A DNA stretch of 64,000 nt from an uncultured Candidatus Saccharimonas sp. (GCA_963549415.1 CAUUYC010000004.1:682-64681); one strand, 5' to 3'; shown: positions 17,382-64,000, counted from the stretch's first letter. The notes: generated by a model from the letters alone, not told the origin. Translations and numbers: made by a program.

Positions 17382-17794
17382 TAAAAATTCTCCTCCAAAT
17401 AATCTTGTAAAATAATTGAAGCCGCATTCATATCGATATCGCCTTTTGAATATGGCTTTCCATAGCTTTTTAGCCTATCTTCAGCCTGAATACTCGTCAA
17501 GCTTTCATCTTGAAAACAAATTTTATCGACTGAATATTCAAAATTTTTTACAAATTCTTTGGTATAAGCAGTTTGCAAAGTCTCTTCACCACTCTGATTT
17601 CGTGGTAACCCAACTACAAGAACGTCGATTTCCTCTTTCGAAATTATCTCAATAATTTGTTTTATTGCAGAATCTACACCATTATTCACTTCAACAGTAG
17701 TAAATGGTATTGCTATTTTAATAAAGGAGTCAGCCAAAGCGATACCAATCCTCTTAGTACCAACATCCAGCGCCATTAACTTTAAAGATTTCAT
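17381..17794 (-). CDS. ruvX: Putative pre-16S rRNA nuclease / Holliday junction resolvase-like RuvX (YqgF)
   Basis: 137 aa with MALDVGTKRIGIALAD. It shares 1-nt overlaps with both neighbours. Confidence 0.9.
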   Translation of the reverse strand: MKSLKLMALDVGTKRIGIALADSFIKIAIPFTTVEVNNGVDSAIKQIIEIISKEEIDVLVVGLPRNQSGEETLQTAYTKEFVKNFEYSVDKICFQDESLTSIQAEDRLKSYGKPYSKGDIDMNAASIILQDYLEENF

Positions 17795-29650: not shown

Positions 29651-30109
29651 ATGATCAACCTTCTTGTAAATTTTATACTGTTTATTTTGAGTATGTTGAA
29701 TGCTGTTACTTTTGGCATTCTTGATAATATTGGAGTTGTTTATTCAATTCTGATTTTCGCAACACTAATAGTTTTTGTAAAACTTGACTCAAAAATTCAA
29801 ATCTGCGATTTTTGGCGGAGTTCTGGATTTTTCATTAAAACTCTCATTTTCATTGGGGTTCTATTCAACACACTTCCCCAATGGTATTTCTGGGTTGCGG
29901 GTGTGATTTTGGTCGTTTTGGCATATTCCTTAACGACCAACCCTGATGATGATGAAGAAGATGAAGAGCCATCGATTTTGGCAAGAATTCATGATATCCT
30001 AATGGGAGAATATCGTAAAAGTGATTTTAAAGCGAAGGCTTCAAGTGCAATCCAAAAAACGAAAAATAAAGCAGGCGCAAAACCTAGAAAAAAATTGCCT
30101 CCAGTATGA
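29651..30109 (+). CDS. Small polytopic membrane protein with an acidic/basic C-terminal tail
   Basis: 152 aa with 3-4 hydrophobic helices followed by a DDDEEDEE stretch and a K-rich tail. Confidence 0.7.
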   Translation: MINLLVNFILFILSMLNAVTFGILDNIGVVYSILIFATLIVFVKLDSKIQICDFWRSSGFFIKTLIFIGVLFNTLPQWYFWVAGVILVVLAYSLTTNPDDDEEDEEPSILARIHDILMGEYRKSDFKAKASSAIQKTKNKAGAKPRKKLPPV

Positions 30110-30114
30110 CACAC

Positions 30115-30143
30115 AATCGCCTTTGAAATGAGGCGATTTTTCT
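30115..30143 (+). terminator. Rho-independent terminator
   Basis: AATCGCCT (30115-30122) pairs with AGGCGATT (30131-30138), then TTTTCTTT. Confidence 0.7.
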
Positions 30144-30200
30144 TTATTTCTTCGAAAAAGTTAAAGTGCTTGCGTTTATTTAATATATATTATATACTTA

Positions 30201-30229
30201 TTGACTTTTTAATACTTTTGTGCTATAAT
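30201..30229 (+). promoter_or_regulatory. Consensus promoter TTGACT-17-TGcTATAAT for the Pro-rich surface protein gene
   Basis: -35 at 30201-30206 and -10 at 30224-30229. A structured leader of about 140 nt follows. Confidence 0.65.
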
Positions 30230-30376
30230 TCTAGCAGTTGACATATCATAATCAGCAGATCTGTCAATGAAGCTTAACAAGAATTAGGTTATTATGAGGT
30301 ATTAATCGTGCCTCAATAGTCATTATTTATTTTGGCCAAAATAAATAAAATCTATATAGAAAGGATGGTACAAAAA

Positions 30377-31855
30377 ATGATGACTATAACTGAAAAAATT
30401 AATAAAGCTCTAGAACAATTAAAGAAACTGGCTTCCGCTAAGGAAGGCGGGGAGATGTGGTTCAAAGAAGTACGCAAAATTGCGGCTAGCAAACCTACAG
30501 ACGAAGAAAAGCTCACTTATCTTGAAGGTAAACTTCAAGAGCTGCGTAACATCTCTGAAGACGAAGCTGATAATGGAGATGCTAGTGCTAAAGCAAAGCT
30601 AAATATTTGGCTAAAAATAGCTATAGGTGCACTATTTCTATTTATAATTGGCACAATGGCTTGGTTTTTACTTTTAGCACCAAAAAGTGCCAGTGCTACA
30701 AATAGTAGCACAACTGCTGTTTCTTCTACAATCTCAAAATCTATAGATCTTCCAAAAGAAGATTTTAAGATTATGGACTATGTGGTTTCAGGAGGCGAGA
30801 TTAAGCCAAACCCTGAAATGAAGAACGATCAGTATAAGATAATCGCGAATAACTCTTCAAAGAACTCTCTTTCAAACGATAAAGATATTGCGCTAAAAGA
30901 GATGACCGACTATATGGCTCATAATGTCTCAGCTTTGAAAGAGAAAGCGATGACATTCAATATTGTCGATCAAAATTTCGATGAAAAGAAATGGCTAGAA
31001 AAGAGAAATGGCTCTCTTTATTACAATAAAGAAGGCCAAGATGTCTTCTATCAGGTGAAGGCGTTTCTAAATAGAAGTAAAATCACTTCGAAAGTTATGG
31101 AAGAAGGTAGTAACTATTATACTACCGGGCTAAACAAAGACAATAAAGTCGTTGTTAGTCAAAGTTCTCAAGATCTTTCTGGACAAAGATATTTGGAAGT
31201 TAAGAATCCTGAAGGTTCAACAGAAAAATATCGATACATTATTTTATGTTACTGCGGGAATACTGTTATGAAAAATAACAATATCCCAGGTGTACCGAAA
31301 GAAAAAATTAAAATTCCTAAACCGAAGAAGCCAAACGAGCCAGACAAACCTGGTAAGCCAAGTGAACCAGGAAAACCTGGTAAACCTGGCAAGCCAAGTG
31401 AACCTTCAAAACCAAGCGAGCCTTCAAAACCTTCAGTAAAGGATCCAAGTAAGGATCCAGCTAACCAAGGTAAAGCTTTGGTTGGCGGAGGCCAAAACGA
31501 TGGATCTTCAAATGGCGCAGAAACTTCTCAAGCAAAATTGCCTGAAAGTTACTCTGCTCCAGCTGCTCCAGTTGTTCCATCTACACCGGCACAAAGCTCA
31601 ACTGCACCATCACAAGATGCTCGTGTAAGTGAGCCATCTCAATGGTCTGGCGCTGGCAATGTCACAGATTCCAATGGCACTACAACAGTGACCAATGATG
31701 GGTCTGTGACCACCCCAGATGGTCGTCATTACGATGGTCTGGTGGGTCAATCTGCTCCTTCAGTTGAAGCTGGAGGTAACGGAGTTACAACTCCAAGCAG
31801 TTCGGCAAACTTTGCAGGCAATAGCTCAATGAGCGAACCCACGATTGATGACTAG
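30377..31855 (+). CDS. Membrane-anchored surface protein with a Pro-rich (K/E-P-G/S-K-P) tandem repeat and an S/T/A/G-rich tail
   Basis: The ORF is open from TTG 30332. The likely start is ATG 30377 (or 30365), after GAAAGGA. One TM lies near residue 100, and there is a KPGKPSEPGKPGKPGKPSEPSKPSEPSKPS block. Confidence 0.8.
   Translation: MMTITEKINKALEQLKKLASAKEGGEMWFKEVRKIAASKPTDEEKLTYLEGKLQELRNISEDEADNGDASAKAKLNIWLKIAIGALFLFIIGTMAWFLLLAPKSASATNSSTTAVSSTISKSIDLPKEDFKIMDYVVSGGEIKPNPEMKNDQYKIIANNSSKNSLSNDKDIALKEMTDYMAHNVSALKEKAMTFNIVDQNFDEKKWLEKRNGSLYYNKEGQDVFYQVKAFLNRSKITSKVMEEGSNYYTTGLNKDNKVVVSQSSQDLSGQRYLEVKNPEGSTEKYRYIILCYCGNTVMKNNNIPGVPKEKIKIPKPKKPNEPDKPGKPSEPGKPGKPGKPSEPSKPSEPSKPSVKDPSKDPANQGKALVGGGQNDGSSNGAETSQAKLPESYSAPAAPVVPSTPAQSSTAPSQDARVSEPSQWSGAGNVTDSNGTTTVTNDGSVTTPDGRHYDGLVGQSAPSVEAGGNGVTTPSSSANFAGNSSMSEPTIDD
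31318..31465 (+). repeat. In-frame short tandem repeats encoding the proline-rich spacer
   Basis: Reiterated AAACCTGG/AAGCCAAGTGAACC units are visible at 31350-31430. Confidence 0.7.
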
Positions 31856-32016
31856 CAGCTTTGGTTTCAGCGATTAGCACCTTTTTTCGAAAAGTTAAAA
31901 TCTTTCGAAACTCACGCTGGGCGGTTTTCCGCCGCCTGGCTTTACATTGATACTTCTTAATAACCCAATTCTATGTTAAGTTTTAACAATTCGGCTAAAG
32001 CGAAGAAAACAAAATA

Positions 32017-32045
32017 TTGACAAACAGAATTATGATGATATTAAT
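32017..32045 (+). promoter_or_regulatory. Promoter TTGACA-16/17-TGaTATTAA(T) for the LPXTG protein gene
   Basis: -35 at 32017-32022 and -10 near 32039-32045. Confidence 0.5.
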
Positions 32046-32081
32046 AATAAATTCTAATAAGTGGAGATTAGAAGGGAGAAA

Positions 32082-34328
32082 ATGAGGGACCAAATGAAAA
32101 AACTCATTAATTTTATTAAAAACCATTCAATAATCTCTGGTTCAGTTTTGGTGGCAGCAGTAGCTCCAGCTCTAGTTTGGGCTTGGGGTCCAGCTCGACC
32201 ATCATTTACTATTGAAAAACCAGCAGATTATATTACATTCAACTCAATCACAAATAACCCTGTGATTGGCGGAGACGAAAAAGATTTCGTTGGAATCCGT
32301 GAAGTTGGCTCAAATGCAAAATGGACAAACAATATGAAAGTCCAAAATGGCAAAGAATATTACGTTCGAATGTACGTTCACAACAACGCAGCTTCAAACT
32401 TGAATCTTGTTGCCGAAAACGTAGTAGCAAAACTTAACGTTCCAACAACAACAGCAAAAAATGTGACTGTTCAAGGTCAGATTTCAGCTTCAAATGCAAA
32501 ACCTAACACAGTTTGGGACGAAGCAACTTTTTCAAGTGATAATGACTTCAACTTAGCTTATGTTGCCGGTTCTGCCCTTTTCGAAAATAACGGAATGGGT
32601 ACAACTAAACTTCCAGACAGTATTGTAAATAATACTGGAGCAAAACTTGGATACGACAAACTTGATGGAAAAATTCCTGGATGTTTCCAATATGCAGGCT
32701 ATGTAACCGTTAAAGTTAAAGCTCAAGTTAGCCAACCGCAAGAAAAAACTAATATCGACCTTGCAAAAACAGTTCGAAATAAAACAAATGGTGAAAAATC
32801 TTGGGTTGAAACTGTAAATGCAAAATCTGGCGATACAGTTCAATTCCAAATTCATGCTAAAAATACAGGTTCTACAGGAATTCAGAACTTAGTAATTCGC
32901 GATATTCTACCAAAAGGTTTGAATTATGTTGCAGGCTCAACAAAGCTCTACAATACATCAAATCCAAAAGGATTGAAAGTTAGCGACAATGTCATTCAAA
33001 ATTCTGGAATCAATATCGGTTCATATCAACCAAATGGTGACGCTTATGTTCGGTTTGACGCAACTGTTTCAGCTGAGAATAGTTTGCCAGTTTGTGGAGA
33101 TAACACTCTAACTAACATCGCTCAAGCAAGTGACCAAAAAATCGTTAAAAACGATACTGCAAGCGTAAAAGTTACAAAAAAATGTGAAACTCCTAAAAAT
33201 CCAGTTTATAAATGTGAAGCTTTAAGTTTAAACATTGTTCGAAAAGACGAAAAGCAAATCACTTATGCTGCTGACACAAAATATTCAGTAAAAGATACAG
33301 AATTTACTGGCACAAAATATGTAGTAAAAAATTCAAAAAATGAAGTTGTTGCCGAAAAAGTTGTAAATGGTGGAACTAAATTCGAAATTACCGTTCCAAA
33401 CAATGTGAACGAAAAATACACAGTTACTTCAACAATCATCACTAAAAACGGTGAAAATTCAAATACTAACTGTGAAAAATCTTTCGAAACTAAAGCTCCA
33501 GCACCAGTTCCATCTAAACCGGAATTGGTATGTCGAAATATTACAATTAACCAAATTTCTCGAACAAAATTCGAATTTAACACTTCTTATACTGTAAATA
33601 ACACAACATTTGTTGGCGTTAAATATATCGTAAAAGATCAAAGTGGTAAAATCGTAATCGAGAAAACTGTAAATAACGGCTCAAAATTAACACTCGATAT
33701 TGAAATTGTTGGTAAATTCACAATTTCTTCAACCGTTATCACAAAAGATGGCGAAAACTCAAATTCAAATTGTGAAAAATCTTTCGAAGTTAAACGCGAA
33801 GAAAAACCTTCAATCCTTATCAAGAAAACTGTAAATAATCAGAAAAATGCTAAAATTGAAGCAAATACTGATTTTAACTACGAGATTACAGTTTCGAATA
33901 ACGGAAATGTTGATTTGAAAGATGTTGTTGTAACCGACCGTGCACCAGCAAATATTACTTTTGTAAGTGCTGATAGCGGTGAAATCAAAGATAATACTTT
34001 AACTCTAAAGATTAGCTCTTTGAAAGTTGGTGAAAGTAAAACTATTACAATTAAATCACAAGCAACAGCAACAGGAATGACTGCCGTAAATACAGCCTGT
34101 GTAGATACGCCAACAATTCCTGGCGACAATGACGGTTGTGATAGCGCGAAAGTGGAAATTCCAAAGAAACAAACTCCACCAACGCCTACACCAAACAATC
34201 CAACACCAAATATTCCAACAGAATTGCCACAAACTGGTGCAAATAGCATTTCTGCAATTCTTGGATTAACATCAATGGTGACCGCCTTTGGTTACTACTT
34301 CGCTAGCCGAAAAGCTGCAAGATTCTAA
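32082..34328 (+). CDS. LPXTG-anchored cell-surface protein with DUF11-type repeat domains
   Basis: Signal peptide after ATG 32082/32094 (the ORF-track GTG is at 32061). The C-terminal sorting signal is LPQTG, a hydrophobic helix and RKAARF. DUF11-like segments and two ~100-aa Cys-bounded tandem domains are present. Confidence 0.85.
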   Translation: MRDQMKKLINFIKNHSIISGSVLVAAVAPALVWAWGPARPSFTIEKPADYITFNSITNNPVIGGDEKDFVGIREVGSNAKWTNNMKVQNGKEYYVRMYVHNNAASNLNLVAENVVAKLNVPTTTAKNVTVQGQISASNAKPNTVWDEATFSSDNDFNLAYVAGSALFENNGMGTTKLPDSIVNNTGAKLGYDKLDGKIPGCFQYAGYVTVKVKAQVSQPQEKTNIDLAKTVRNKTNGEKSWVETVNAKSGDTVQFQIHAKNTGSTGIQNLVIRDILPKGLNYVAGSTKLYNTSNPKGLKVSDNVIQNSGINIGSYQPNGDAYVRFDATVSAENSLPVCGDNTLTNIAQASDQKIVKNDTASVKVTKKCETPKNPVYKCEALSLNIVRKDEKQITYAADTKYSVKDTEFTGTKYVVKNSKNEVVAEKVVNGGTKFEITVPNNVNEKYTVTSTIITKNGENSNTNCEKSFETKAPAPVPSKPELVCRNITINQISRTKFEFNTSYTVNNTTFVGVKYIVKDQSGKIVIEKTVNNGSKLTLDIEIVGKFTISSTVITKDGENSNSNCEKSFEVKREEKPSILIKKTVNNQKNAKIEANTDFNYEITVSNNGNVDLKDVVVTDRAPANITFVSADSGEIKDNTLTLKISSLKVGESKTITIKSQATATGMTAVNTACVDTPTIPGDNDGCDSAKVEIPKKQTPPTPTPNNPTPNIPTELPQTGANSISAILGLTSMVTAFGYYFASRKAARF
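33213..33800 (+). repeat. Two tandem ~300-nt domain repeats inside the LPXTG gene
   Basis: Both copies end in TGTGAAAAATCTTTCGAA (CEKSFE), at 33471 and 33771, exactly 300 nt apart. The protein copies are diverged (...TSTIITKNGENSNTNCEKSFE versus SSTVITKDGENSNSNCEKSFE). Confidence 0.75.
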
Positions 34329-40246: not shown

Positions 40247-41776
40247 ATGAACGAAGAACAAGCCTATTTAGAAAAAATCGGGAAGCTTATTCAAGAATCC
40301 CGCCTGCACAAGAATTTAACTCAAGTTGAGCTTGCCGAAAAAATTGGCACCTCACAAAGTGCAATTAACCGAATTGAAAGTGGTAAGCAAAATATAACTA
40401 TTGAAATGCTTGCAAGAATTTCAGAAGAACTTTCGAGCGAAATTATATCTGTTAATTCAAATAAGAAAACCAATTTTCGTGTTCATGGCGGTCACGAACT
40501 TTCTGGTGAAATTGAAGTTAAAACCTCAAAAAATGCCGCCGTCGCCCTGCTTTGCGCTTCTCTTCTAAATAAAGGAAAAACGATTCTTCGCCGCGTTGCT
40601 AGAATCGAAGAGGTTAATCGAATTATTGAAGTCTTAAATTCGATTGGCGTTCGCACAAAATGGCTTAATGAAGATAACGACCTCGAAATTATACCTCCTA
40701 GAGAATTATCTTTCGAAAACATGAATGTTGAATCTGCCAAAAGAACACGCAGCATTCTAATGTTTCTTGGCCCACTTCTTCACCAATATTCAGACTTCGA
40801 AATACCTTTTTCTGGTGGGTGCAATTTAGGAACACGCACAGTTGAGCCACACCTTTCTGGATTAAAATATTTTGGTGCAAATGTTACAGCACAAACTGAT
40901 TTTTACAAAGTTTCAAATAAACCAAAAAAAGTCGAGAAGCCAATACTCTTAACCGAGCGCGGAGACACAACAACTGAAAATATAATTATGGCCGCAGCGC
41001 TTTCTGGTCAAGAAATTACAATTCGAAATGCTAGTCCAAACTATATGGTGCAAGATTTATGTTTCTTTCTTGAAGAGCTTGGCGTTAAAATTGAAGGAAT
41101 TGGAACAACAACCTTAAAAGTTCATGGATTAATAAAAATCGAAAAAGATGTTGAATATTATGTAAGCGAAGACCCTATTGAATCTTTGACTTTCGTGGCG
41201 GTTGCGCTGGTTACAAATTCTGAAATTACCATCAAACGTGCGCCAATCGAATTCAACGAACTTGAACTTGCAACCCTCGAACAAATGGGTGCAAATTTCG
41301 AAATCAGCTCCGAATATCTTTCGAAAAATAAAAAAACGCGCCTTGTGGATATTAAAGTTAAAAAATCAAAATTACATGCTGCGAAAGATAAAATTCACGC
41401 GCTACCATTTCCTGGTATAAATATGGACAATTTGCCTTTTCTTGGATTAATTGCAACTGTCGCGGAAGGTCGAACTTTGATTCATGACTGGAGCTACGAA
41501 AACCGTGCAATTTACTTTACTGAGCTTTCAAAATTAAACGCTAAAATTGAACTTGTTGATCCACATCGTGTTTATATTTCTGGCCCAACAAAATGGAAAC
41601 CTGCAGACATTATTGCGCCAAGTGCCCTTCGCCCAAGTGTTGTAGTTTTGATCGCAATGCTTGCCGCACCAGGAGTCTCAACCTTGCGAGATGTTTACAA
41701 TATCAATCGCGGCTATGAGGATTTTGCAGAAAGATTAAATTCACTTGGTGCAAAAATTGAAACTTTATTTTCATAA
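40247..41776 (+). CDS. murA: XRE-family HTH domain fused to UDP-N-acetylglucosamine 1-carboxyvinyltransferase
   Basis: Residues 1-65 form an HTH_3 domain (LTQVELAEKIGTSQSAINRIESGKQN). The rest is a MurA/EPSP fold with the catalytic-Cys loop GGCNLGTRTVEPH, FPGINMDN and YENR. Confidence 0.9.
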   Translation: MNEEQAYLEKIGKLIQESRLHKNLTQVELAEKIGTSQSAINRIESGKQNITIEMLARISEELSSEIISVNSNKKTNFRVHGGHELSGEIEVKTSKNAAVALLCASLLNKGKTILRRVARIEEVNRIIEVLNSIGVRTKWLNEDNDLEIIPPRELSFENMNVESAKRTRSILMFLGPLLHQYSDFEIPFSGGCNLGTRTVEPHLSGLKYFGANVTAQTDFYKVSNKPKKVEKPILLTERGDTTTENIIMAAALSGQEITIRNASPNYMVQDLCFFLEELGVKIEGIGTTTLKVHGLIKIEKDVEYYVSEDPIESLTFVAVALVTNSEITIKRAPIEFNELELATLEQMGANFEISSEYLSKNKKTRLVDIKVKKSKLHAAKDKIHALPFPGINMDNLPFLGLIATVAEGRTLIHDWSYENRAIYFTELSKLNAKIELVDPHRVYISGPTKWKPADIIAPSALRPSVVVLIAMLAAPGVSTLRDVYNINRGYEDFAERLNSLGAKIETLFS

Positions 41777-41783
41777 TTAAAAA

Positions 41784-41810
41784 GACTCCCAAAAATTGGG
41801 AGTTATTTTT
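41784..41810. terminator. Bidirectional terminator
   Basis: GACTCCCA (41784-41791) pairs with TGGGAGT (41797-41803), flanked by A- and T-runs. Confidence 0.7.
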
Positions 41811-41812
41811 AG

Positions 41813-42238
41813 CTAATGTTTAAGATAGTCTTTATTTTCTGTGCGATATTTTATCGCATTTTTTCGAATAATATTCGCTTCATTGAAGTTAAAAACTGCT
41901 CTGTCTTCAAGTTTCTTAATAAGAAGATCGACAACTTTTATATTGAATTTCATGCAAGAAATCCCAGTTGGTTTCTCACCATTTAGAATCTCAAAAATTG
42001 TTAGAAATTCAATATCTACGTCAGAAGCTTCTGCCCAATCTTCTCCAAGCAGATCTTCAGCAGCCTGAATTAGTGAACTTTTAATCGCTTCTAAGAGATT
42101 ATTCTCATTTTGGTCATTAAGACTACTACAAAAGCTTGGGTGGTAAGCCCTAAAACAATCAAAAGTATCTCGAAAGACTTCATCCATCTTTTTTGATATG
42201 ATTTCTGTAAGGTTCAATTTAAATTTAGCCATTTTCAT
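41813..42238 (-). CDS. Hypothetical 141-aa cytoplasmic protein
   Basis: ORF with ATG, GGAGGAATG-type SD (AAGGAGGAATGAAAATG) and terminator. No family recognised. Confidence 0.65.
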   Translation of the reverse strand: MKMAKFKLNLTEIISKKMDEVFRDTFDCFRAYHPSFCSSLNDQNENNLLEAIKSSLIQAAEDLLGEDWAEASDVDIEFLTIFEILNGEKPTGISCMKFNIKVVDLLIKKLEDRAVFNFNEANIIRKNAIKYRTENKDYLKH

Positions 42239-42324
42239 TCCTCCTTGGCAAAAAATCTATCTAATATTATATCATACTTTAAAATTTTGGTCAAATAAAA
42301 AAGAGCCTTAAGCTCGAATTTACT

Positions 42325-42402
42325 TGGGGCGAATGATGGGGTTCGAACCCACGGCCTCCGGTGCCACAAACCAGCGCTCTAACCAGCTGAGCTACATCCG
42401 CC
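42325..42402 (-). tRNA. tRNA-His(GUG) with genomically encoded G-1 and CCA
   Basis: Hand-folded: G-1 lies opposite C73, acceptor GCGGATG/CATTCGC, anticodon loop TTGTGGC. Confidence 0.88.
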
Positions 42403-42446
42403 ATAGCTTCAACCATTTTAACACATAAAAACTTGAAAATCAAGCT

Positions 42447-42914
42447 TTAAAATTTTGGCTTAATTTGCGGGTGAAAACTTCGCACAACATTTTGAGAGCT
42501 TGGAGTTTGCGAACCGTAAAAACCCGCCATTCCGGTTTGTTGAACCTCGCCGAAACCACTTTTCGTCATTCTTATTTTTGTTGATTGATCAATTTGACCA
42601 TTCGAAATTGTATTTTTTTGCCTATTTAAATTTTGCTGCAAATAATTTGAAACCCTTTCTTCTCTTTTGGCTCTAATCTGATCAAGAGCCGATCTTGAAC
42701 TTTCCATTTTAGTTTTTTGTGCCATTCTTAATTGACCAAGTTGAGAATCTCGATATGAGCGCACTTTCGAATTTCTATAATCAATCGCTTGGCGCTGCGC
42801 AAAACTTTGTGAGCTTGCAGCACCAATTCTTCCACCAGACTGAGCTTTAGCGTATCCGCTAGAATGAGAAACTTCTTCAAGACTTGATTTTACAACATAA
42901 TCATTTAATTTCAT
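42447..42914 (-). CDS. Hypothetical Q/S/R-rich 155-aa protein
   Basis: ORF between tRNA-His and tRNA-Gly. Low complexity, and no family recognised. Confidence 0.55.
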   Translation of the reverse strand: MKLNDYVVKSSLEEVSHSSGYAKAQSGGRIGAASSQSFAQRQAIDYRNSKVRSYRDSQLGQLRMAQKTKMESSRSALDQIRAKREERVSNYLQQNLNRQKNTISNGQIDQSTKIRMTKSGFGEVQQTGMAGFYGSQTPSSQNVVRSFHPQIKPKF

Positions 42915-42956
42915 AATACTATATTAGCATAAACACATTATTTTTTCAAAAAAGTC

Positions 42957-42985
42957 TTGCTTTTATAAAAAATGTTTGCTATAAT
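42957..42985 (+). promoter_or_regulatory. Promoter TTGCTT-17-TGcTATAAT for tRNA-Gly
   Basis: -35 at 42957-42962 and -10 at 42980-42985. The tRNA starts at 42994. Confidence 0.65.
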
Positions 42986-42993
42986 AATCTCAT

Positions 42994-43068
42994 GCGGGCG
43001 TCGTATAACGGCTAATATACCTGCCTTCCAAGCAAGTGATGAGAGTTCGATTCTCTCCGCCCGCACCA
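42994..43068 (+). tRNA. tRNA-Gly(UCC), CCA encoded
   Basis: Hand-folded: acceptor GCGGGCG/CGCCCGC, discriminator A, anticodon loop CTTCCAA, one C-A mismatch in the anticodon stem. Confidence 0.8.
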
Positions 43069-43094
43069 TTTGATCTTTTTTGTTTTGGCACAAG

Positions 43095-43120
43095 CCTCCA
43101 TTTTCTGGAGGTTTTTGCTT
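43095..43120 (+). terminator. Terminator after tRNA-Gly
   Basis: CCTCCA (43095-43100) pairs with TGGAGG (43106-43111), then TTTTT. Confidence 0.7.
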
Positions 43121-43136
43121 TTAGAAAATAATCATA

Positions 43137-43165
43137 TAGACTTTTTTAAAAAAACTTGATATAAT
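43137..43165 (+). promoter_or_regulatory. Promoter TAGACT-17-TGaTATAAT for tRNA-Arg(UCU)
   Basis: -35 at 43137-43142 and -10 at 43160-43165. The tRNA starts at 43178. Confidence 0.55.
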
Positions 43166-43177
43166 TATTTTAGGTAC

Positions 43178-43254
43178 GCCCCCGTAGCTCAGTGGATTAG
43201 AGTAAGAGGTTTCTACCCTCCTGGCCGTAGGTTCGAGTCCTACCGGGGGTACCA
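43178..43254 (+). tRNA. tRNA-Arg(UCU), CCA encoded
   Basis: Hand-folded: acceptor GCCCCCG/CGGGGGT (G1-U72 wobble), anticodon loop TTTCTAC, T-loop GGTTCGAGTCC. Confidence 0.82.
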
Positions 43255-43268
43255 AATTATTTTATTTT

Positions 43269-43787
43269 ATGGAAATTATCTTTTACTCAATATCATTTAT
43301 TCTCGGCATAATTATTGCCGCTTTTCTTTTAACTATATTTTTTGGTGCACCGTATGTCCCTACACACAAATCAGATCTTTTCAGACTCTTCGAAACAATA
43401 AATCTTTCTAAAGAAGATATACTCGTAGATATCGGTTCTGGTGATGGAGTTGTTTTAAAAGTTGCAAATAATTTTAACGCAAAAGCTATTGGCTTCGAGA
43501 TTAACCCTTTTCTAGTTTTAATTTCAAAAATTAAACTTCGAAAACAGCAAAACTGCCAAATTTATCTTAAAAATTTTTGGAAAGCCTTCCCGATTTCAAA
43601 CATTACCGTATTCTATACTTTTGGCCACGCCGAGAGGATTGAAAAAATGCTAAAGCTTGCTCAAATTCAGACAAATTTTCAAAAAATACCTCTACTTTTT
43701 ATTAGTTATGGTTTCGAAATTAAAAATTTAAAACCTTTTAAAATATCAGGCGCACATTATATTTATAAAATTCAGCCAAAAAAATAA
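43269..43787 (+). CDS. Class I SAM-dependent methyltransferase with an N-terminal TM helix
   Basis: 172 aa with motif I VDIGSGDGVV. The ATG lies 14 nt after tRNA-Arg with no promoter or SD of its own, so it is probably co-transcribed. Confidence 0.7.
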   Translation: MEIIFYSISFILGIIIAAFLLTIFFGAPYVPTHKSDLFRLFETINLSKEDILVDIGSGDGVVLKVANNFNAKAIGFEINPFLVLISKIKLRKQQNCQIYLKNFWKAFPISNITVFYTFGHAERIEKMLKLAQIQTNFQKIPLLFISYGFEIKNLKPFKISGAHYIYKIQPKK

Positions 43788-49299: not shown

Positions 49300-49316
49300 T
49301 AATTTCAAATATAATA

Positions 49317-49342
49317 AAATAGCCTTCATAAAGGCTATTTTA
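49317..49342. terminator. Bidirectional terminator between rny and the surface operon
   Basis: A 10-bp stem: 49317-49326 pairs with 49331-49340. Confidence 0.7.
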
Positions 49343-49344
49343 TA

Positions 49345-50565
49345 TTACATCTTACAGTTTAATCCACCATTTTTAATTTTAGTTGTTGAGAAATCTTTAC
49401 AAATCGGCTCATCCCCTTCAGTTTGAGCAGAAAATAGAGGAACTGGGAAATTACTATCATGGAATCCAATTCGACTTTCAATTCTTCTAAACTGACTATT
49501 TGCTCGACCAGTTGAGTCAACTTTTGGTTGAATACCTTTAAAATCTACAACATTACCATTGTTCATAAGCTCAATTTTAAATTCAGCATTATTCATTAAA
49601 GGTGTCAATCGAGCATATAAAACATCAGTTGGAGAAACGTTTCGCCCAATATTTATTACCATTTCGCAAGCATAGGTATTTGAGCCAGCCCCAAGATCAT
49701 CTGAACATTTCGTAAAAGTATAGTCATTTGTTGATTGTGTAGAATTTTCATCTCGACGAACAGTTGGTAGATTCGAACTATTCACAACTCGAGAATCCAA
49801 GCCTGAAGCAGGATAAAACAGCATCTCACTCGCACCATTTCCATCATCTGGATAAGGTGTATCCATACTTGTTGACGAATTTCCATTCCGTCCGGGAACA
49901 TAACCATATAGTTGGGTTTTTAATATGGCCGGTCTATTTTGAGCTTGCCAATCTTTCAGAATATTAGGGCGAGCATTGGGATTATTTATTGAATCTAAGG
50001 ATATTTTTGAACCATTCGCCATATTATTTTTAGTATGCCACTTAACACGAATCTGGTTAAAGCTCGAAACACCTTTTAAGTTAATAACTGAGGGCGTTCC
50101 TTCATTACTTTGACCCAAAAAGTCAGAAGTATCTGTTTTAATTTTAACACAAGTATAGGCTTGGTTTAAATCTCGATCAGTATTTCCTCCACCGGAACTT
50201 GTTTTGGTTTGTACTATAGTTTCACTACCGTTAGCGCCAATTCCGGCAGTCGCTAGAACATAACAGCTACCAGACAGAATTGCCTTTGTCATTTCACTGC
50301 AATCATATGTCTTACTTTCGAAAACTTTCTTACCAACATCTGCACCACCACAGGCACCTTTATAAATTCGTAAAAATCTTTTAGCGTCTTCAACTCCCGC
50401 CTGAGCACTATCATAAGCACTCTGTGAAAGATCTAGCCTACTGGCCTGCTCTTGGTCTCGGAGCATAATCCGCAAAAAGCTTGCAGACATAATCGAGACC
50501 AAAATACCAACCATAATAACAATAAAGATTGAAACACCACCTTTTTTAAACTCTCTATTTGTCAT
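49345..50565 (-). CDS. PilX-family (type IV pilus minor-pilin-like) protein
   Basis: 406 aa. The N-terminal KKGGVSIFIVIMVGILVSIMSASFLRIMLRDQEQASR...AYDSAQAGVEDA matches my recollection of the PilX_N pattern. The C-terminal STGRANSQFRRIESRI resembles PilX tails. Confidence 0.65.
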   Translation of the reverse strand: MTNREFKKGGVSIFIVIMVGILVSIMSASFLRIMLRDQEQASRLDLSQSAYDSAQAGVEDAKRFLRIYKGACGGADVGKKVFESKTYDCSEMTKAILSGSCYVLATAGIGANGSETIVQTKTSSGGGNTDRDLNQAYTCVKIKTDTSDFLGQSNEGTPSVINLKGVSSFNQIRVKWHTKNNMANGSKISLDSINNPNARPNILKDWQAQNRPAILKTQLYGYVPGRNGNSSTSMDTPYPDDGNGASEMLFYPASGLDSRVVNSSNLPTVRRDENSTQSTNDYTFTKCSDDLGAGSNTYACEMVINIGRNVSPTDVLYARLTPLMNNAEFKIELMNNGNVVDFKGIQPKVDSTGRANSQFRRIESRIGFHDSNFPVPLFSAQTEGDEPICKDFSTTKIKNGGLNCKM

Positions 50566-50567
50566 AT

Positions 50568-53042
50568 TTAATACCTCACCGGAAGTTCTTTAGTATAAGT
50601 TGTAACAATTTTACCCGCACTACCAGATTGAGACTGAGCCCACAAGTAGGTATCTGCCGATTGGTTAAAAATTTCAGCAGGATTAGCTAGCGTATCTTTC
50701 GCAGTTCCATCGGAGCCAGCAGTTCGCCATAATCGCAATCCTTTTGAAACTGTTCCACCGCGCACACGCAATTGATTGTCACAATTTTTCATATTAACAT
50801 CATTGGCATTCTGGGCGCCGTTAACCGCACAAGTATTTATTACGCCTTGAGCAATCAACCACGCATCAACTCTTTTCACTCCTTGATCAATAGTAATATC
50901 TCCGTCAGCAATAATTATAATCTGACGAAAATCCGAATCATTATTTACAGCTCTATCAGCATTCACAATATCGCCAGAAATTCGAATATTTTTACCATAG
51001 ATTACTCGAGTTTGCTTATCGGCTAAAATTGAACCAAGCTGTTTGTTCGCATCGCCATAAACTTCAACTTTTGTATTTGTATCTTCAAAATTCTTTTTTG
51101 GAAATTTTGAAGCAATGTTTGAAATTAATGAATCGATACTTGATTTTCCTTGACCAAAACTACTTTTTGAAGAATAATCTTCAATTGCCAACTTTTGCGT
51201 ACTTTGTGAAGATTCAGTTCGAAAATCTTTAATTTTCACACCCGAGAGTGCTTCATATTCAACCCAAGAGCCGAGAACTCCTTGTTTAGTTGTAGATAAA
51301 CTTGTTCGAATACCCGATTTTGAATAAACACCATTTCCCCAGAATTGAACTTTTGGTTTCTTAACTAGCTTAATACAAATCGGTGCACCATGCCGCCAGT
51401 CTAAATTTTCTCGTTCTTGTTTGGCTTGCTCAGCCTGACTTTGGTTTGAATTCATCTTGTATGGCGAGATGGAAAGCGCCACACAATAACGGGTTCCCGC
51501 CTCGGCACCATCTTCAATTGAAGGTATAAAGTCGGCAACTCGAGTATCTTTATTAAATTTCCCAGTCCCTTCTTTAATAACACGACATTTTTCAATTCCT
51601 TGATAATCTTGATAATAAAAGTTTGAAGGTGAACAGGTATCACTGTTCGTATTATCTCTCTTATTATTTTGAGTTACAAAACTCTCTTTATCTGAAGGAA
51701 CACGCCAAGTTGTAATTTTATACCTTATCGATGAAGTTTCAGTTCCGCCTCCTGGAATATTAATTTCTTCACCATCATTAGGGTCGTTTGGCACTTTACC
51801 ATTAGTAGGAACATCTAAATCACCACCAGAGCAGTTTCGAATTTTATCAATTTTAACACAAGGTGTTATTTCAAAATCATAAGGAACATAGACACATGCA
51901 TCATTAGTAGTTTTATTATACCTATTAGTATTATCAATATTTCCAGCAGCAACTCCATATGACATCTTTGAACATATTACCTTTCCAGCCATATCTCTGG
52001 TTACCCTAAAGATCTCCCTGTCGGTACCTACTGCGTTAATCGTATCCCAAATATTACCTTGATTAATTATTGTAGGCCTACTATCCCACGAGTCTTTATT
52101 CCATCTAAAATTATAATTATTTACCGAATAATCGCCATATCCATCATTTCTGACGGTTTGATAGTAGCCACTACCACTAACGCTTTTTCTATTAAAATCT
52201 TTGCCTGTAACTTTATGCCTAAAAGAAACCCATTGGCTAACTCTAGCAGTCTGAGGATTATAGCGACCATTACTCTTAAATCTTGAATCGTTTGAATTAA
52301 TTCTCTGGTTAGAATTTAAAACTGCCGCCTTAGTATCTCCTTCAACATTAAATTTGACTGGTGCTTTAACCCTTAGAATGATATCATGGTTATAACAATT
52401 CCCCGGAAGACCTTCGTGATCATCTACCCAGCTATGACTTCCCACTCCATAGAAATTCCAACACTGCCATACATTAAATTTTATATAATCTCCGTCTGAT
52501 AGTTTATCTATCTCGGACTCTTTAATAGATATCTTAGCAACCCCGATACGGCCAGCCTCTCCCTCGTTCAAATGGAAGTTAAAAGCGGCTCCTTGACCCC
52601 TTCTACCCACAGGGACAGATCCATTACTTTCAAGTTTACTAGCATCTAAATCATCTTTTTGGATTCTAATATTTGTAGCAGCAGCATGATTTGGACCTTT
52701 ACATGCCATTGCGGCGATATTAAGATAAAAGCTTCTACTCTCTTTACTTACTTGAAACTCATTTTTTTCGTAAATGGAACTAATAACCTTTTTACCTTCA
52801 GGGTCGGCAGATATCCAGTTTCCTGTTACTGATACAGGACTATTATACCTATCAAAATCAATTTCAGTTCCTTCATATGTTTTTTGCTTAATCATTGTAC
52901 CACGAGCATTACAAGTATCTAGAAGCCTTTGAGCAACACTATGCGGTAAGGAGTTGGCAGCATTTGTATTCTTTTGAAAAAATATAGAATTAAATACAAA
53001 AGAAAGCAAAACAGCAAAAAATAAAATATTAAGCTTTTTCAT
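50568..53042 (-). CDS. Large secreted N/G/S/C-rich protein, function unknown (candidate adhesin or tip protein)
   Basis: 824 aa with the signal peptide MKKLNILFFAVLLSFVFNSIFF...ANS. The start abuts the upstream stop, and its own stop lies 2 nt before the PilX-like ATG. Confidence 0.8.
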   Translation of the reverse strand: MKKLNILFFAVLLSFVFNSIFFQKNTNAANSLPHSVAQRLLDTCNARGTMIKQKTYEGTEIDFDRYNSPVSVTGNWISADPEGKKVISSIYEKNEFQVSKESRSFYLNIAAMACKGPNHAAATNIRIQKDDLDASKLESNGSVPVGRRGQGAAFNFHLNEGEAGRIGVAKISIKESEIDKLSDGDYIKFNVWQCWNFYGVGSHSWVDDHEGLPGNCYNHDIILRVKAPVKFNVEGDTKAAVLNSNQRINSNDSRFKSNGRYNPQTARVSQWVSFRHKVTGKDFNRKSVSGSGYYQTVRNDGYGDYSVNNYNFRWNKDSWDSRPTIINQGNIWDTINAVGTDREIFRVTRDMAGKVICSKMSYGVAAGNIDNTNRYNKTTNDACVYVPYDFEITPCVKIDKIRNCSGGDLDVPTNGKVPNDPNDGEEINIPGGGTETSSIRYKITTWRVPSDKESFVTQNNKRDNTNSDTCSPSNFYYQDYQGIEKCRVIKEGTGKFNKDTRVADFIPSIEDGAEAGTRYCVALSISPYKMNSNQSQAEQAKQERENLDWRHGAPICIKLVKKPKVQFWGNGVYSKSGIRTSLSTTKQGVLGSWVEYEALSGVKIKDFRTESSQSTQKLAIEDYSSKSSFGQGKSSIDSLISNIASKFPKKNFEDTNTKVEVYGDANKQLGSILADKQTRVIYGKNIRISGDIVNADRAVNNDSDFRQIIIIADGDITIDQGVKRVDAWLIAQGVINTCAVNGAQNANDVNMKNCDNQLRVRGGTVSKGLRLWRTAGSDGTAKDTLANPAEIFNQSADTYLWAQSQSGSAGKIVTTYTKELPVRY

Positions 53043-53465
53043 TTAGAATAGATCTCCAACATCTTTATATTTTAAGCCTGAAGGTTTAATATACTCAATA
53101 TAGCTAACGCCACTAATTTTTAAGCTTGGGTTTTGACCCTTATTAATCATTTCTTCAAGATTTTTAAATGTTTGTTCCTGATTTTCTGTTCCAATAAAAA
53201 GCCGCATTATAACACAGTTGGAATCTTTCTCATTTCCTGCTTTTTTCGAAATCTCATCACCCAAAGCTTTTGCGTTCTTGGCGTATTCTTCTTTTCTGCC
53301 TTTAATATTGTTATATTTATTAATGGTATCATCCCCACAAACCGAACCAACAGGGTTTTTCATTGCAGCAATATCATTTTTATTTTTAATTACTTGCACT
53401 ACGTTTAGTCCTGCACTCAAAACAGCAATAACTAAAACTACACCAAATAATATTTTGTGTTTCAT
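53043..53465 (-). CDS. Small N-terminally anchored extracytoplasmic protein, first gene of the surface operon
   Basis: 140 aa with an N-terminal TM (ILFGVVLVIAVLSAGL). A strong GGTGGAGGGA SD precedes it. Confidence 0.7.
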   Translation of the reverse strand: MKHKILFGVVLVIAVLSAGLNVVQVIKNKNDIAAMKNPVGSVCGDDTINKYNNIKGRKEEYAKNAKALGDEISKKAGNEKDSNCVIMRLFIGTENQEQTFKNLEEMINKGQNPSLKISGVSYIEYIKPSGLKYKDVGDLF

Positions 53466-53504
53466 TATCTAAGTCCCTCCACCTTAAAAATATTTCCTAA
53501 AATA

Positions 53505-53533
53505 ATTATAAACAAAAGCGTTTTAAAAATCAA
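53505..53533 (-). promoter_or_regulatory. Promoter TTGATT-17-TATAAT for the three-gene surface operon
   Basis: Minus strand: -10 at 53505-53510 and -35 at 53528-53533. A leader of about 35 nt carries the GGAGGG SD. Confidence 0.55.
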
Positions 53534-63994: not shown

Positions 63995-64000
63995 TTACTC

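Follow-up and report, generated by a model that had tools for sequence, protein, structure and literature searches.

A conserved Saccharibacteria gene trio couples a diverged PilX1-type minor pilin to a large secreted protein and may form a pilus-tip module

Introduction

In a 64,000-nucleotide stretch of DNA from an uncultured Candidatus Saccharimonas sp., a tiny parasitic member of the Saccharibacteria that dwells in the mouth (GCA_963549415.1, CAUUYC010000004.1:682-64681), hereafter the window, three genes lie so close together that they raise the question of whether they encode one envelope system and, if so, of what kind. A reading of the sequence alone had likened the trio, despite its different composition, to tip complexes of minor pilins with PilY1-type proteins, whose presumed role is in tip adhesion and priming. 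Here we ask whether the trio is a conserved unit, what its last gene encodes, and whether a pilus-tip function is its best explanation.

Results

The three minus-strand ORFs are separated by gaps of 0 and 2 nt, as had been read from the sequence, and are flanked by polA upstream and by a convergent RNase Y gene, rny (Table 1). A Shine-Dalgarno sequence was likewise found where it had been proposed ahead of ORF1, and the internal start codons of ORF2 and ORF3 are preceded at 8-12 nt by SD-like GGAG and GGTGAGG. The hairpin at 49343..49314, previously read as a bidirectional terminator, has a 13-bp stem with A and T runs on its flanks and is a candidate for that role. The proposed promoter is the best consensus match in the region, but because promoter-like sites are no more numerous there than in shuffled sequence (22 versus 17.9 +/- 4.1) we treat it as a consensus match only. 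A scan of the window's 40 largest ORFs, which excluded four ORFs at 40247-43787, detected no pilin, PilB/C/D or secretin gene; to this extent the earlier statement that such genes are not adjacent holds.

Table 1. Coordinates of the cassette and its features, counted from the first nucleotide of the window.
Feature	Position	Strand	Remarks
ORF1	53043..53465	-	140 aa
ORF2	50568..53042	-	824 aa
ORF3	49345..50565	-	406 aa
Sigma-70-like promoter candidate TTGATT-17-TATAAT	53505..53533	-	10/12 consensus match, best in region
Shine-Dalgarno AGGTGGAGGG	53475..53484	-	10 nt upstream of ORF1 ATG; read from sequence
ORF2 signal peptide, aa 1-28 (...KNTNA/ANS)	52959..53042	-	Sec-type; from sequence
ORF2 variable N-terminal region, aa 29-375	51918..52958	-	tandem Ig-like/FnIII-like beta-sandwiches; AF2, Foldseek, conservation
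ORF2 conserved C-terminal domain, aa 376-824	50571..51917	-	near-invariant end TTYTKELPVRY; common to all homologs
ORF3 N-terminus, aa 1-72	50350..50565	-	basic leader ending GG, hydrophobic segment, long alpha-1 helix with PilX_N-like motif
ORF3 beta-rich jelly-roll-like head, hairpin QPKVDSTGRANSQFRRIESRI (aa 346-366) and Cys-containing tail	49345..50349	-	AF2 model, conservation
Hairpin ATAAAATAGCCTTTATGAAGGCTATTTTAT	49314..49343		candidate two-way terminator between convergent ORF3 and RNase Y genes

Many relatives carry the trio, including some whose ORF3 is as little as 41% identical, and its synteny is maintained, a check that had been suggested for it. At every locus with a detected ORF2 homolog, over a range of 98% to 41% ORF3 identity, ORF2 ends just ahead of an ORF3 homolog; the linkage of the two is strict, and the trio is a real conserved unit, not a chance arrangement. 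Two cassettes are present in N. gingivitcus and two, approximately 11 kb apart, in one relative, while a second copy is absent from the window's species. In Saccharibacteria the neighbors are housekeeping genes (polA, rny and arginine deiminase genes). The cassette is also mobile: in Enterococcus quebecensis it resides on an integrative mobilizable element encoding a T4SS coupling protein, a Replic_Relax protein, an MT-A70 methylase and two serine recombinases, and in Streptococcus suis it adjoins a resolvase. These mobile Firmicutes copies had been missed in the sequence-only reading. In both phyla LPXTG surface proteins adjoin the cassette, which, with its variable copy number, behaves as flexible surface-related content.

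Clustered at 50% identity, the family to which ORF3 belongs falls into 1803 groups, and its matches are full-length. Among more distant Saccharibacteria loci, 51 of 51 have the ORF3 homolog in last place, after ORFs of approximately 296, 250, 207 and 240 aa, and window ORF3 matches the last gene of these loci, which share one five-ORF layout, over residues ~7-395 (tblastn and phmmer, E 1e-51 to 1e-66). In one such locus (L067) the preceding ORFs are PilD and three N_methyl pilins, one above and two below the Pfam cutoff, and in L086 Pfam assignments place the ORF3 homolog at the close of a full PilM-PilB-PilT-PilC-PilA-PilD locus. The Saccharibacteria T4P-1 operon runs PilM, two uncalled ORFs in the pilN/pilO position, PilB, PilT, PilC, PilA, PilD, three pilins and the ORF3 homolog. 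Nanosynbacter lyticus TM7x shows the same order and sizes (pilV1, 246 aa; pilZ1; pilW1, 232 aa; pilX1, 380 aa; TM7x_00460-00475), ending in TM7x_00475, which matches the TXSScan T4aP_pilX profile at E 3.3e-6. This last gene encodes the Saccharibacteria minor pilin PilX1, which is predicted to lack a canonical PilD signal (Grossman et al., ISME J 2025; PMC12206443 / PMC11623550).

ORF3 is thus homologous to the genes that occupy the PilX1 position in pilD-pilin operons, which assigns it and TM7x PilX1 to the same family. Both are 380-420 aa long, start with an extended helix that carries a beta (jelly-roll-like) head, lack a canonical PilD signal and give only weak fold matches, to capsid proteins. 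Unlike PilX1, window ORF3 lies outside any pilus locus, between ORF2 and rny rather than after pilD and three pilins, and it always follows a large non-pilin gene and usually a small anchored gene as well. It is 33-37% identical to operon-type copies, and in a neighbor-joining tree, which carries no support values, the ORF2-coupled copies form one clade, with the operon-type PilX1 genes from the Nanogingivalis-like group as its sister. Given its location outside the T4P-1 locus and its separate clade, we classify ORF3 as a paralog rather than an ortholog, and sequence comparison identifies it as a diverged copy of PilX1. The proposed PilX link of the last gene is therefore borne out by the operon position of its family and by a pilin-like model. 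Since the family has already been described as PilX1, the undescribed part is only its coupling with ORF2 and ORF1.

The ORF3 N-terminus (MTNREFKKGG/VSIFIVIMVGILVSIMSASF) has the layout of a class III signal peptide, in which a hydrophobic stretch of ~20 residues follows a short, Gly-terminated basic leader, and Gly9 is almost invariant across 141 family members. As previously noted, a G/FTLxE motif is absent; position +5 is hydrophobic throughout the family, with no Glu, and ORF3 matches neither N_methyl (PF07963) nor T2SS_K. GspK/PilX-type tip subunits typically lack Glu5. The best-conserved parts of the family are RDQEQASR...AYDSAQAGVEDA and VDSTGRANSQFRRIESRI, in which distant members are 67% and 61% identical versus ~20% elsewhere; residues 31-66, in alpha-1, are 67% identical to distant members, including operon-type PilX1. 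The PilX_N-like character claimed for the N-terminus stands in part: Pfam PilX_N (PF14341) does not match window ORF3 at E<=10, while the N-termini of five of ten relatives align with it in register over model positions 1-51 at 12-22 bits (E 1.7e-4 to 0.18), all below the gathering threshold of 25.5 bits. The C-terminal STGR motif, also taken as PilX-like, receives no HMM support. AlphaFold2 models ORF3 with a pLDDT of 85.8 and a pTM of 0.82 as a 63-residue N-terminal helix (residues 10-72, pLDDT >90) followed by a beta-strand domain, which is the lollipop fold of pilins, with a long alpha-1 and a globular beta domain. Fold searches return only weak jelly-roll capsid and fimbrial matches (best E 0.02).

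ORF2 is, as described, a large Asn-, Gly- and Ser-rich protein (8.7%, 7.9% and 9.0%, respectively) with a Sec-type signal peptide and 14 Cys, and no Pfam or NCBIfam domain is recognized in it, nor any Pfam domain in nine homologs. Its conservation is graded: among close relatives residues 1-200 are 62-66% identical versus 88-96% for residues 301-824, distant homologs have the N-terminal region swapped outright, and the C-terminal ~450 aa are the sole part common to all homologs (824-1218 aa). Within this domain, for which PDB, Pfam, phage and plasmid searches return no relatives, WRH, K-x-PK, D726, E790, D797, E819 and R823 are invariant, and conservation peaks in the peptide at the extreme C-terminus, which the monomer model leaves disordered. 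AlphaFold2 pLDDT is 80-93 across residues 30-400 and mixed in the C-terminal domain, falling below 50 in the final 29 residues (whole-protein pTM 0.44); residues 657-771 are modeled as short, repeated, beta-solenoid-like strands.

The beta-sandwich architecture of ORF2 emerges from a Foldseek search with the whole model, which matches Ig-like sandwich arrays (complement MG domains, AgI/II C-domains, ScpA and CfaB) at E ~1e-6; these matches likely belong to the N-terminal region. Ig-like stalks (the C-domains of the AgI/II proteins BspA and AspA, ScpA Fn3 and CFA/I subunits) are the best fold matches, at E ~1e-6 to 1e-4. Unlike these adhesins, ORF2 has no sequence similarity to them and no LPXTG anchor, and TM-scores are 0.1-0.27; what is shared is a common domain type, not family membership. 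A PDB profile search returns no matches, and none of the 50 best-listed Foldseek PDB matches is a PilY1, propeller or catalytic domain. We rejected ORF2 as a PilY1 homolog given this result and the lack of Neisseria_PilC (PF05567) or vWA matches. Assignment to a well-known enzyme family, which had been named as grounds for abandoning the envelope proposal, also failed: no family matches in Pfam, NCBIfam or PDB sequences.

ORF1 has the predicted N-terminal signal-anchor helix, followed by an outer domain of ~110 aa with two conserved Cys. An alignment of 18 homologs, including those of S. suis and E. quebecensis, contains the motifs VG-x-V-CGD, KD-x-NC and G-x-NPSL, and neither Pfam (SurA_N included) nor PHROGs or PADLOC yields a match. 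ORF1 was rejected as a pilin because no Gly precedes its helix. The occurrence of ORF1 tracks the form of ORF2: ORF2 homologs with a cleavable-looking signal peptide, like that of the window, have a small anchored gene upstream, which is missing where ORF2 brings a TM anchor of its own. SurA_N/PpiD-like membrane-anchored chaperones were considered as a candidate family for ORF1: the N-termini of three long, anchored homologs of ORF2 weakly match SurA_N_2/3 (E 0.002-0.04), and hhalign relates ORF1 to the N-termini of anchored forms with 84% probability, mostly through the leader and TM segment.

Discussion

A spare PilX1 copy with a large, fast-evolving secreted partner is probably, therefore, an exchangeable "sticky tip" for a type IV pilus. 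We put at roughly even chances that the cassette is an interchangeable T4P-1 tip adhesin module, PilY1/PilX-like in function and with a non-homologous large subunit. Under this proposal ORF3, a duplicated and diverged PilX1, would be a GspK/PilX-type minor pilin without Glu5 that caps the priming complex, its conserved alpha-1 helix inserting among the core minor pilins, which the pilD-pilin operon at another site in the genome would supply. ORF2 would be exported by Sec and contact ORF3 physically, its C-terminal ~450 aa, including the TTYTKELPVRY end, docking on the ORF3 head. After incorporation into the pilus, its fast-evolving N-terminal Ig-like domains would be displayed at the tip and could adhere to the host bacterium or another surface. 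ORF1 may act as a holder or chaperone that keeps ORF2 at the membrane before loading, and in homologs without ORF1 the ORF2 protein would bring its own N-terminal membrane anchor.

Several points tell against a tip module: ORF3 lacks Glu5 and matches to N_methyl and PilX_N, pilus genes are not adjacent, TM7x PilX1 itself is predicted to lack a PilD signal, and the ORF2 C-terminal domain is only moderately modeled. The ORF3 features and the absence of nearby pilus genes favor the main rival, a pilus-independent surface complex in which an unprocessed ORF3 helix anchors ORF2, ORF1 serves as a second anchor, and the whole is a self-contained adhesin or receptor. Certain ORF2 forms are membrane-anchored themselves, and the three genes travel together on the E. 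quebecensis element and beside the S. suis resolvase, which suggests function in hosts without a Saccharibacteria-type T4P. To our knowledge S. suis and E. quebecensis have only Com-type pseudopili, and so the cassette may work without T4aP. However, these Firmicutes hosts probably possess a prepilin peptidase, along with a Com pseudopilus into which a subunit such as ORF3 could fit, Gly at -1 is almost invariant in the family, and the identity of the exposed alpha-1 motif to operon PilX1 exceeds the constraint expected of a plain anchor. We consider this rival unlikely, if less so than the two that follow.

A conserved C-terminus joined to a variable N-terminus would also suit a catalytic-plus-targeting layout, in which secreted ORF2 acts on the host envelope as an enzyme or effector, for example a beta-solenoid glycan lyase or hydrolase, positioned by ORF3 and ORF1 and targeted by its N-terminus. 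The invariant charged and aromatic residues of the C-terminal domain and its solenoid-like strands fit such an enzyme; the empty family searches and the lack of a catalytic domain among the 50 best-listed folds do not, and the top-conserved, disordered terminal peptide resembles a docking strand more than an active site, making this reading improbable. Least probable is an accessory of mating or DNA uptake that decorates a competence pseudopilus or conjugation apparatus instead of serving epibiont attachment. It draws on the gene content of the E. quebecensis element (the T4SS coupling protein, Replic_Relax protein, MT-A70 methylase and two serine recombinases) and on the natural competence of Saccharibacteria (PMC10633639), yet a full T4SS is missing from the Firmicutes element, so that the cassette looks like cargo, and the Saccharibacteria cassettes sit among housekeeping rather than T4SS or com genes. 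In addition, those TM7x T4P-2 pilin mutants that could be obtained kept wild-type transformation rates, a result that applies to T4P-2 and not to T4P-1.

If the cassette does form a pilus tip, a close parallel is the pairing of PilY1/PilC with PilX and the other core minor pilins in the type IVa pili of Pseudomonas, Myxococcus and Neisseria, where a large non-pilin protein likewise accompanies a PilX-type minor pilin and a genome may carry several alternative sets. The PilY1-type likeness of the sequence-only reading survives at this level, since ORF2 shares the variable N-terminus and conserved C-terminus of PilY1/PilC as a functional analogy, not as homology. Unlike those sets, the cassette has no Neisseria_PilC beta-propeller or vWA domain in ORF2, places the large gene ahead of the pilin, adds a small anchored protein and leaves the other minor pilins to be encoded elsewhere. 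The type II secretion tip pseudopilin GspK is without Glu5, larger than other pseudopilins and has an extra domain in its pilin fold; ORF3 is alike in these respects, but its head is beta-rich and jelly-roll-like, not an alpha-helical insert. PMC7541494 is cited for the presumed part of PilY1/PilC in tip adhesion and priming. TM7x PilX2, with its beta-propeller, and Streptococcus sanguinis PilB and PilC are modular minor pilins that carry fused adhesin domains and similarly display a functional module on a monoderm-type T4P (PMC11623550, PMC8179133); unlike the modules of these pilins, ORF2 is not fused to its pilin but is made as a polypeptide of its own, signal peptide included.

The cassette ends in a paralog of the minor pilin PilX1

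The trio of minus-strand genes lies exactly where the sequence-only reading had placed it, with intergenic gaps of 0 and 2 nt, SD-like GGAG and GGTGAGG motifs 8-12 nt ahead of the internal ATGs of ORF2 and ORF3, and AGGTGGAGGG located 10 nt before the ORF1 ATG. The TTGATT-17-TATAAT sequence upstream of ORF1 is a candidate promoter only, because such matches are no more frequent in this region than in shuffled sequence. At the other end, a hairpin with A/T-rich flanks separates ORF3 from a convergent RNase Y gene. The source organism is a Saccharibacterium of low GC (35%), whose relatives carry the labels Candidatus Nanogingivalaceae or Saccharimonas, and the genes around the cassette are housekeeping genes (polA, trxB-like, FKBP, pheST, rny and clpB); among the 40 largest ORFs of the window we found no pilus machinery genes. 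RNA coverage of the operon, which comes from low-depth contigs only and from runs guessed to be RNA, has a depth similar to that of the neighbors and is too weak to prove co-transcription. In relatives whose ORF3 is 63% identical (L001/L002), polA and the trio are separated by an extra 114-aa ORF and approximately 850 nt of uncalled DNA, and a DUF3800 gene is inserted ahead of polA; therefore the upstream control region is not conserved.

Coordinates of the cassette and of related or neighboring loci (L handles denote loci in the genomes of relatives or other carriers, each with its own numbering)
Feature	Location	Strand	Size	Remark
Promoter-like TTGATT-17-TATAAT	53533..53505	minus		best match in region
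ORF1	53465..53043	minus	140 aa
ORF2	53042..50568	minus	824 aa
ORF3	50565..49345	minus	406 aa
Hairpin after ORF3	49343..49314		13 bp
Extra DNA around polA in relatives	L001/L002:3888-5090 and 455-1114
Anchored protein upstream of ORF2 in one MAG	L030:34-582		182 aa
Second cassette between AAA_18 kinase gene and greA	L089:5677-14387; L090
E. quebecensis element	L083/L084:6101-22175
S. suis YS259 cassette locus	L037:2853-9235
Further Firmicutes loci	L028; L026
Small secreted proteins adjoining cassettes	L020:3562-4191; L021:3244-4170; L022:69-956; L028:3906-4616; L037:3884-4822; L029:2872-4461
Plus-strand cluster in window	29651-34328	plus
Baseplate_J-like ORF in window	17794-19404	minus	536 aa
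LysM + CHAP hydrolase in window	14777-15832	minus

ORF3 has no Pfam or NCBIfam match, and neither the protein nor its family profile gave a credible match to PDB sequences; Foldseek against the PDB returned nothing at E<=0.001. The family is nonetheless large, comprising 3795 clusters at 90% identity and 1803 at 50% identity over full-length alignments. Among GTDB species genomes we confirmed 512 relatives and kept 80 loci for ORF calling, and these loci fall into two contexts, one a pilin operon and the other coupled to ORF2. In the operon context, where ORF3 identity is approximately 31-38% in the best tblastn segment, the ORF3 homolog is the last of five ORFs (~296, 250, 207, 240 and 395 aa) in 51 of 51 loci. 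Pfam analysis of one such locus identified the first ORF as a prepilin peptidase (A24_N_bact and Peptidase_A24), and we read the three ORFs that follow as pilins because of their N_methyl matches, one above and two below the Pfam cutoff. A longer locus presents the whole T4P-1 cluster, running from PilM through two ORFs at the pilN/pilO position without a recorded Pfam match to PilB, PilT, PilC, PilA, PilD, three pilins and the ORF3 homolog, after which comes a convergent XerC-like gene. Locus one of Nanosynbacter lyticus TM7x is arranged in the same order as this five-ORF row: it contains pilV1 (246 aa), pilZ1, pilW1 (232 aa) and pilX1, the last being TM7x_00475, a 380-aa protein that matches TXSScan T4aP_pilX at E 3.3e-6 over residues 21-63 (PMC12206443, PMC11623550). 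These sequence relationships make ORF3 a paralog of PilX1, a minor pilin of Saccharibacteria.

Features of the protein itself bear on this assignment. The ORF3 leader terminates in a glycine, and Gly9 is near-invariant across the family; position +5 is hydrophobic, not Glu, family-wide. An initial suggestion that ORF3 begins with a PilX_N-like segment was borne out only in part, as the window protein has no PilX_N match and the N-termini of 5 out of 10 relatives have in-register matches that stay below threshold (12-22 bits versus a cutoff of 25.5). The two motifs singled out in the sequence-only reading do coincide with the stretches where the family is most conserved: identity to distant members is 67% over residues 31-66 and 61% over residues 341-366, versus approximately 20% elsewhere.

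ORF2 pairs a variable N-terminus with a conserved C-terminus

ORF2 has a Sec-type signal peptide, 14 cysteines and no Pfam domain, and its homologs, all named "hypothetical protein" by NCBI, range from 822 to 1218 aa. A second search with a diverse profile recovered almost the same 190 proteins, and deeper homologs came from the loci and from cluster look-ups. In eight of the 13 homologs compared, the shared part is confined to the final ~450 residues, which correspond to positions 376-824 of the window protein. Among close relatives, identity is 62-66% over residues 1-200 and 88-96% over residues 301-824, and in distant homologs the best-conserved stretch is the last 24 residues (...GKIVTTYTKELPVRY), at 64%. 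ORF2 is a secreted protein of several domains whose N-terminus varies and whose C-terminus is conserved. Its AF2 model (pLDDT 72.8, pTM 0.44) predicts confident beta-sandwich domains at residues 30-400, a less certain C-terminal half with solenoid-like short strands at 657-771, and a disordered conserved tail.

Foldseek searches of the PDB with this model matched Ig-like domain arrays at E values of about 1e-6 to 1e-4 with low TM-scores, including complement MG domains, streptococcal AgI/II C-domains, ScpA Fn3, CFA/I pilus subunits and integrin legs. The 50 best-listed matches included neither PilY1 nor a beta-propeller, and by tests of membership ORF2 does not belong to PilY1. Searches of viral models gave the same generic matches, and we dropped a phage tail-fibre origin because only generic Ig/FnIII arrays had been matched in either database; tblastn of the C-domain against phage and plasmid records likewise found nothing. 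Profiles of ORF2 and of its C-domain had no credible match among PDB sequences, and Pfam applied to nine ORF2 homologs gave nothing but weak SurA_N matches at the N-termini of three long forms. Searches of the trio proteins against Pfam, NCBIfam, PHROGs and PADLOC yielded nothing usable. Two NCBIfam matches within the trio (GSU2086_dom, E 0.036; thiolase, E 0.003) were rejected as far below cutoffs, and the GSU2086 literature was uninformative.

The distribution of ORF1 and the form of ORF2 are complementary. Forms of ORF2 with a cleavable signal peptide always have a small anchored gene directly upstream, and forms that start with their own basic segment and TM anchor (L018, L020, L021 and L028) have none; N. 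gingivitcus carries such an anchored form, of 1218 aa, in the corresponding place on the chromosome, with rny and clpB downstream. ORF1, which occurs in trios from Saccharibacteria, Streptococcus suis and Enterococcus quebecensis, consists of an N-terminal signal-anchor helix and an outer domain of ~110 aa with two conserved cysteines and conserved motifs. Because no Gly precedes the helix, ORF1 is not a pilin. The case for fission or fusion of ORF1 and ORF2 is weak: the ORF1 HMM misses the N-termini of long ORF2 forms, and although hhalign aligned the two with a probability of 84%, we claim no fusion because the two are alike only over the leader and, mostly, the TM segment. In one MAG, the protein upstream of a signal-peptide-type ORF2 is N-terminally anchored and is not an ORF1 homolog.

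The cassette varies in copy number and occurs in Firmicutes

Every ORF2 homolog that we detected ends just ahead of an ORF3 homolog. In a neighbor-joining tree without support values, all ORF2-coupled ORF3 copies form one clade, whose sister is the operon-type PilX1 of a Nanogingivalis-like group, a topology that fits a putative pilX1 duplication, after which one copy would have become coupled to ORF2. Two MAGs (RZZT01 and CAYXHY01) each combine an operon-type PilX1 with a coupled pair. Consistent neighbors of the cassette are limited to rny and clpB at orthologous loci and to resolvases in Firmicutes.

No second copy was found within the 64-kb window. N. gingivitcus CMJM carries two cassettes (L021 and L025), and one MAG contig has two that are ~11 kb apart (L014 and L019). 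Relatives at ~80% DNA identity have a second cassette (L089/L090) in the interval from an AAA_18 kinase gene to greA. It encodes a 1042-aa TM-anchored ORF2-like protein and a 418-aa ORF3-like protein, and the interval also holds an 892-aa LPXTG protein and an epimerase. Contigs encoding the exact RmuC protein of the window (L091/L092, covering the region just past position 64000) lack these ~9 kb, and therefore the cassette belongs to the flexible genome.

Isolate genomes of E. quebecensis and S. suis and one Streptococcus MAG also carry the cassette. The E. quebecensis copy sits in what we read as an integrative mobilizable element. A small resolvase gene marks one end of this element and a large serine recombinase gene the other, and its further genes encode an LPXTG MucBP/FIVAR protein, an MT-A70 methylase, a T4SS coupling protein and a Replic_Relax protein. 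The S. suis cassette follows a resolvase and an LPXTG protein, and its ORF3 is interrupted, being split into 331 and 78 aa. Firmicutes ORF3 copies nest within the coupled clade of the same tree, and the GC of the Firmicutes copies (0.40-0.43) is in line with that of their hosts. Small secreted proteins adjoin the cassette in six loci, from Saccharibacteria as well as Firmicutes; a VYAEE-like mature N-terminus is present in four of these proteins and a terminal LPXTG-type anchor in five. They resemble one another weakly (E 1e-3 to 1e-8 in a tiny database), and no protein of this kind adjoins the window trio.

Possible roles of the cassette

The best-supported reading, to which we give about an even chance, is that the trio is an accessory tip module for the T4P-1 pilus; contact between its components, incorporation into the pilus and adhesion are inferences. 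ORF3 would be an adaptor pilin derived from PilX1, ORF2 would dock on it through the conserved C-terminal domain or tail and expose its hypervariable Ig-like domains as a binding surface, and ORF1 would act as a membrane-anchored helper, a working mode like that of PilY1/PilC with PilX in type IVa pili. The lack of Glu5 in ORF3 and the self-contained transfer into Firmicutes favor a pilus-independent, anchored surface complex, which we consider somewhat unlikely. That the conserved ORF2 domain is an enzyme or effector seems improbable, and a role as a mating or DNA-uptake accessory is most doubtful.

Attachment to a host bacterium is obligatory for Saccharibacteria, and type IV pili play an essential or important part in it (PMC10633639, PMC11623550). 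Their T4P and the PilX1 family have been published (PMC11623550, PMC12206443, PMC10633639); the papers that we read do not describe the coupling of a PilX1 paralog with a large secreted partner and a small anchored protein, or such a cassette on Firmicutes mobile elements. The host-binding T4P-2 is reportedly missing from G6-type lineages, and for such lineages a cassette of variable copy number, in which a PilX1 paralog is joined with a hypervariable secreted partner, is an obvious candidate host-specificity determinant. As a tip module, it would be a second way, not homologous to the first, of realizing the PilY1-type design of a large adhesin on a PilX-type pilin. The S. suis and E. quebecensis copies, a possible cross-phylum transfer, would be rare documented gene flow between Patescibacteria and Firmicutes and would offer culturable organisms for functional tests. 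A broader and distinctly speculative scenario, which we think unlikely as a whole, is that of a tip cassette that could be plugged into type IV filaments of different hosts, in which a PilX1-derived adaptor pilin, its own large and rapidly diversifying adhesin and a loading factor would have spread horizontally via mobile elements from Saccharibacteria to Lactobacillales (S. suis and E. quebecensis), would be displayed there on the competence pseudopilus, and would set host or partner specificity in host-restricted lineages without T4P-2.

Other loci in the window

A plus-strand cluster within an otherwise minus-strand stretch, where GC and AT skew change sign, encodes 152-aa and 507-aa ORFs without a Pfam match followed by a 755-aa protein with DUF11 repeats and an LPXTG-type anchor, and is likely another surface-protein locus. 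Between an FtsA-like gene and ruvX/yceG lies an ORF with a weak Baseplate_J-like match (E 1.8e-5). The window also encodes a secreted LysM and CHAP peptidoglycan hydrolase, which could be relevant to an epibiotic lifestyle.
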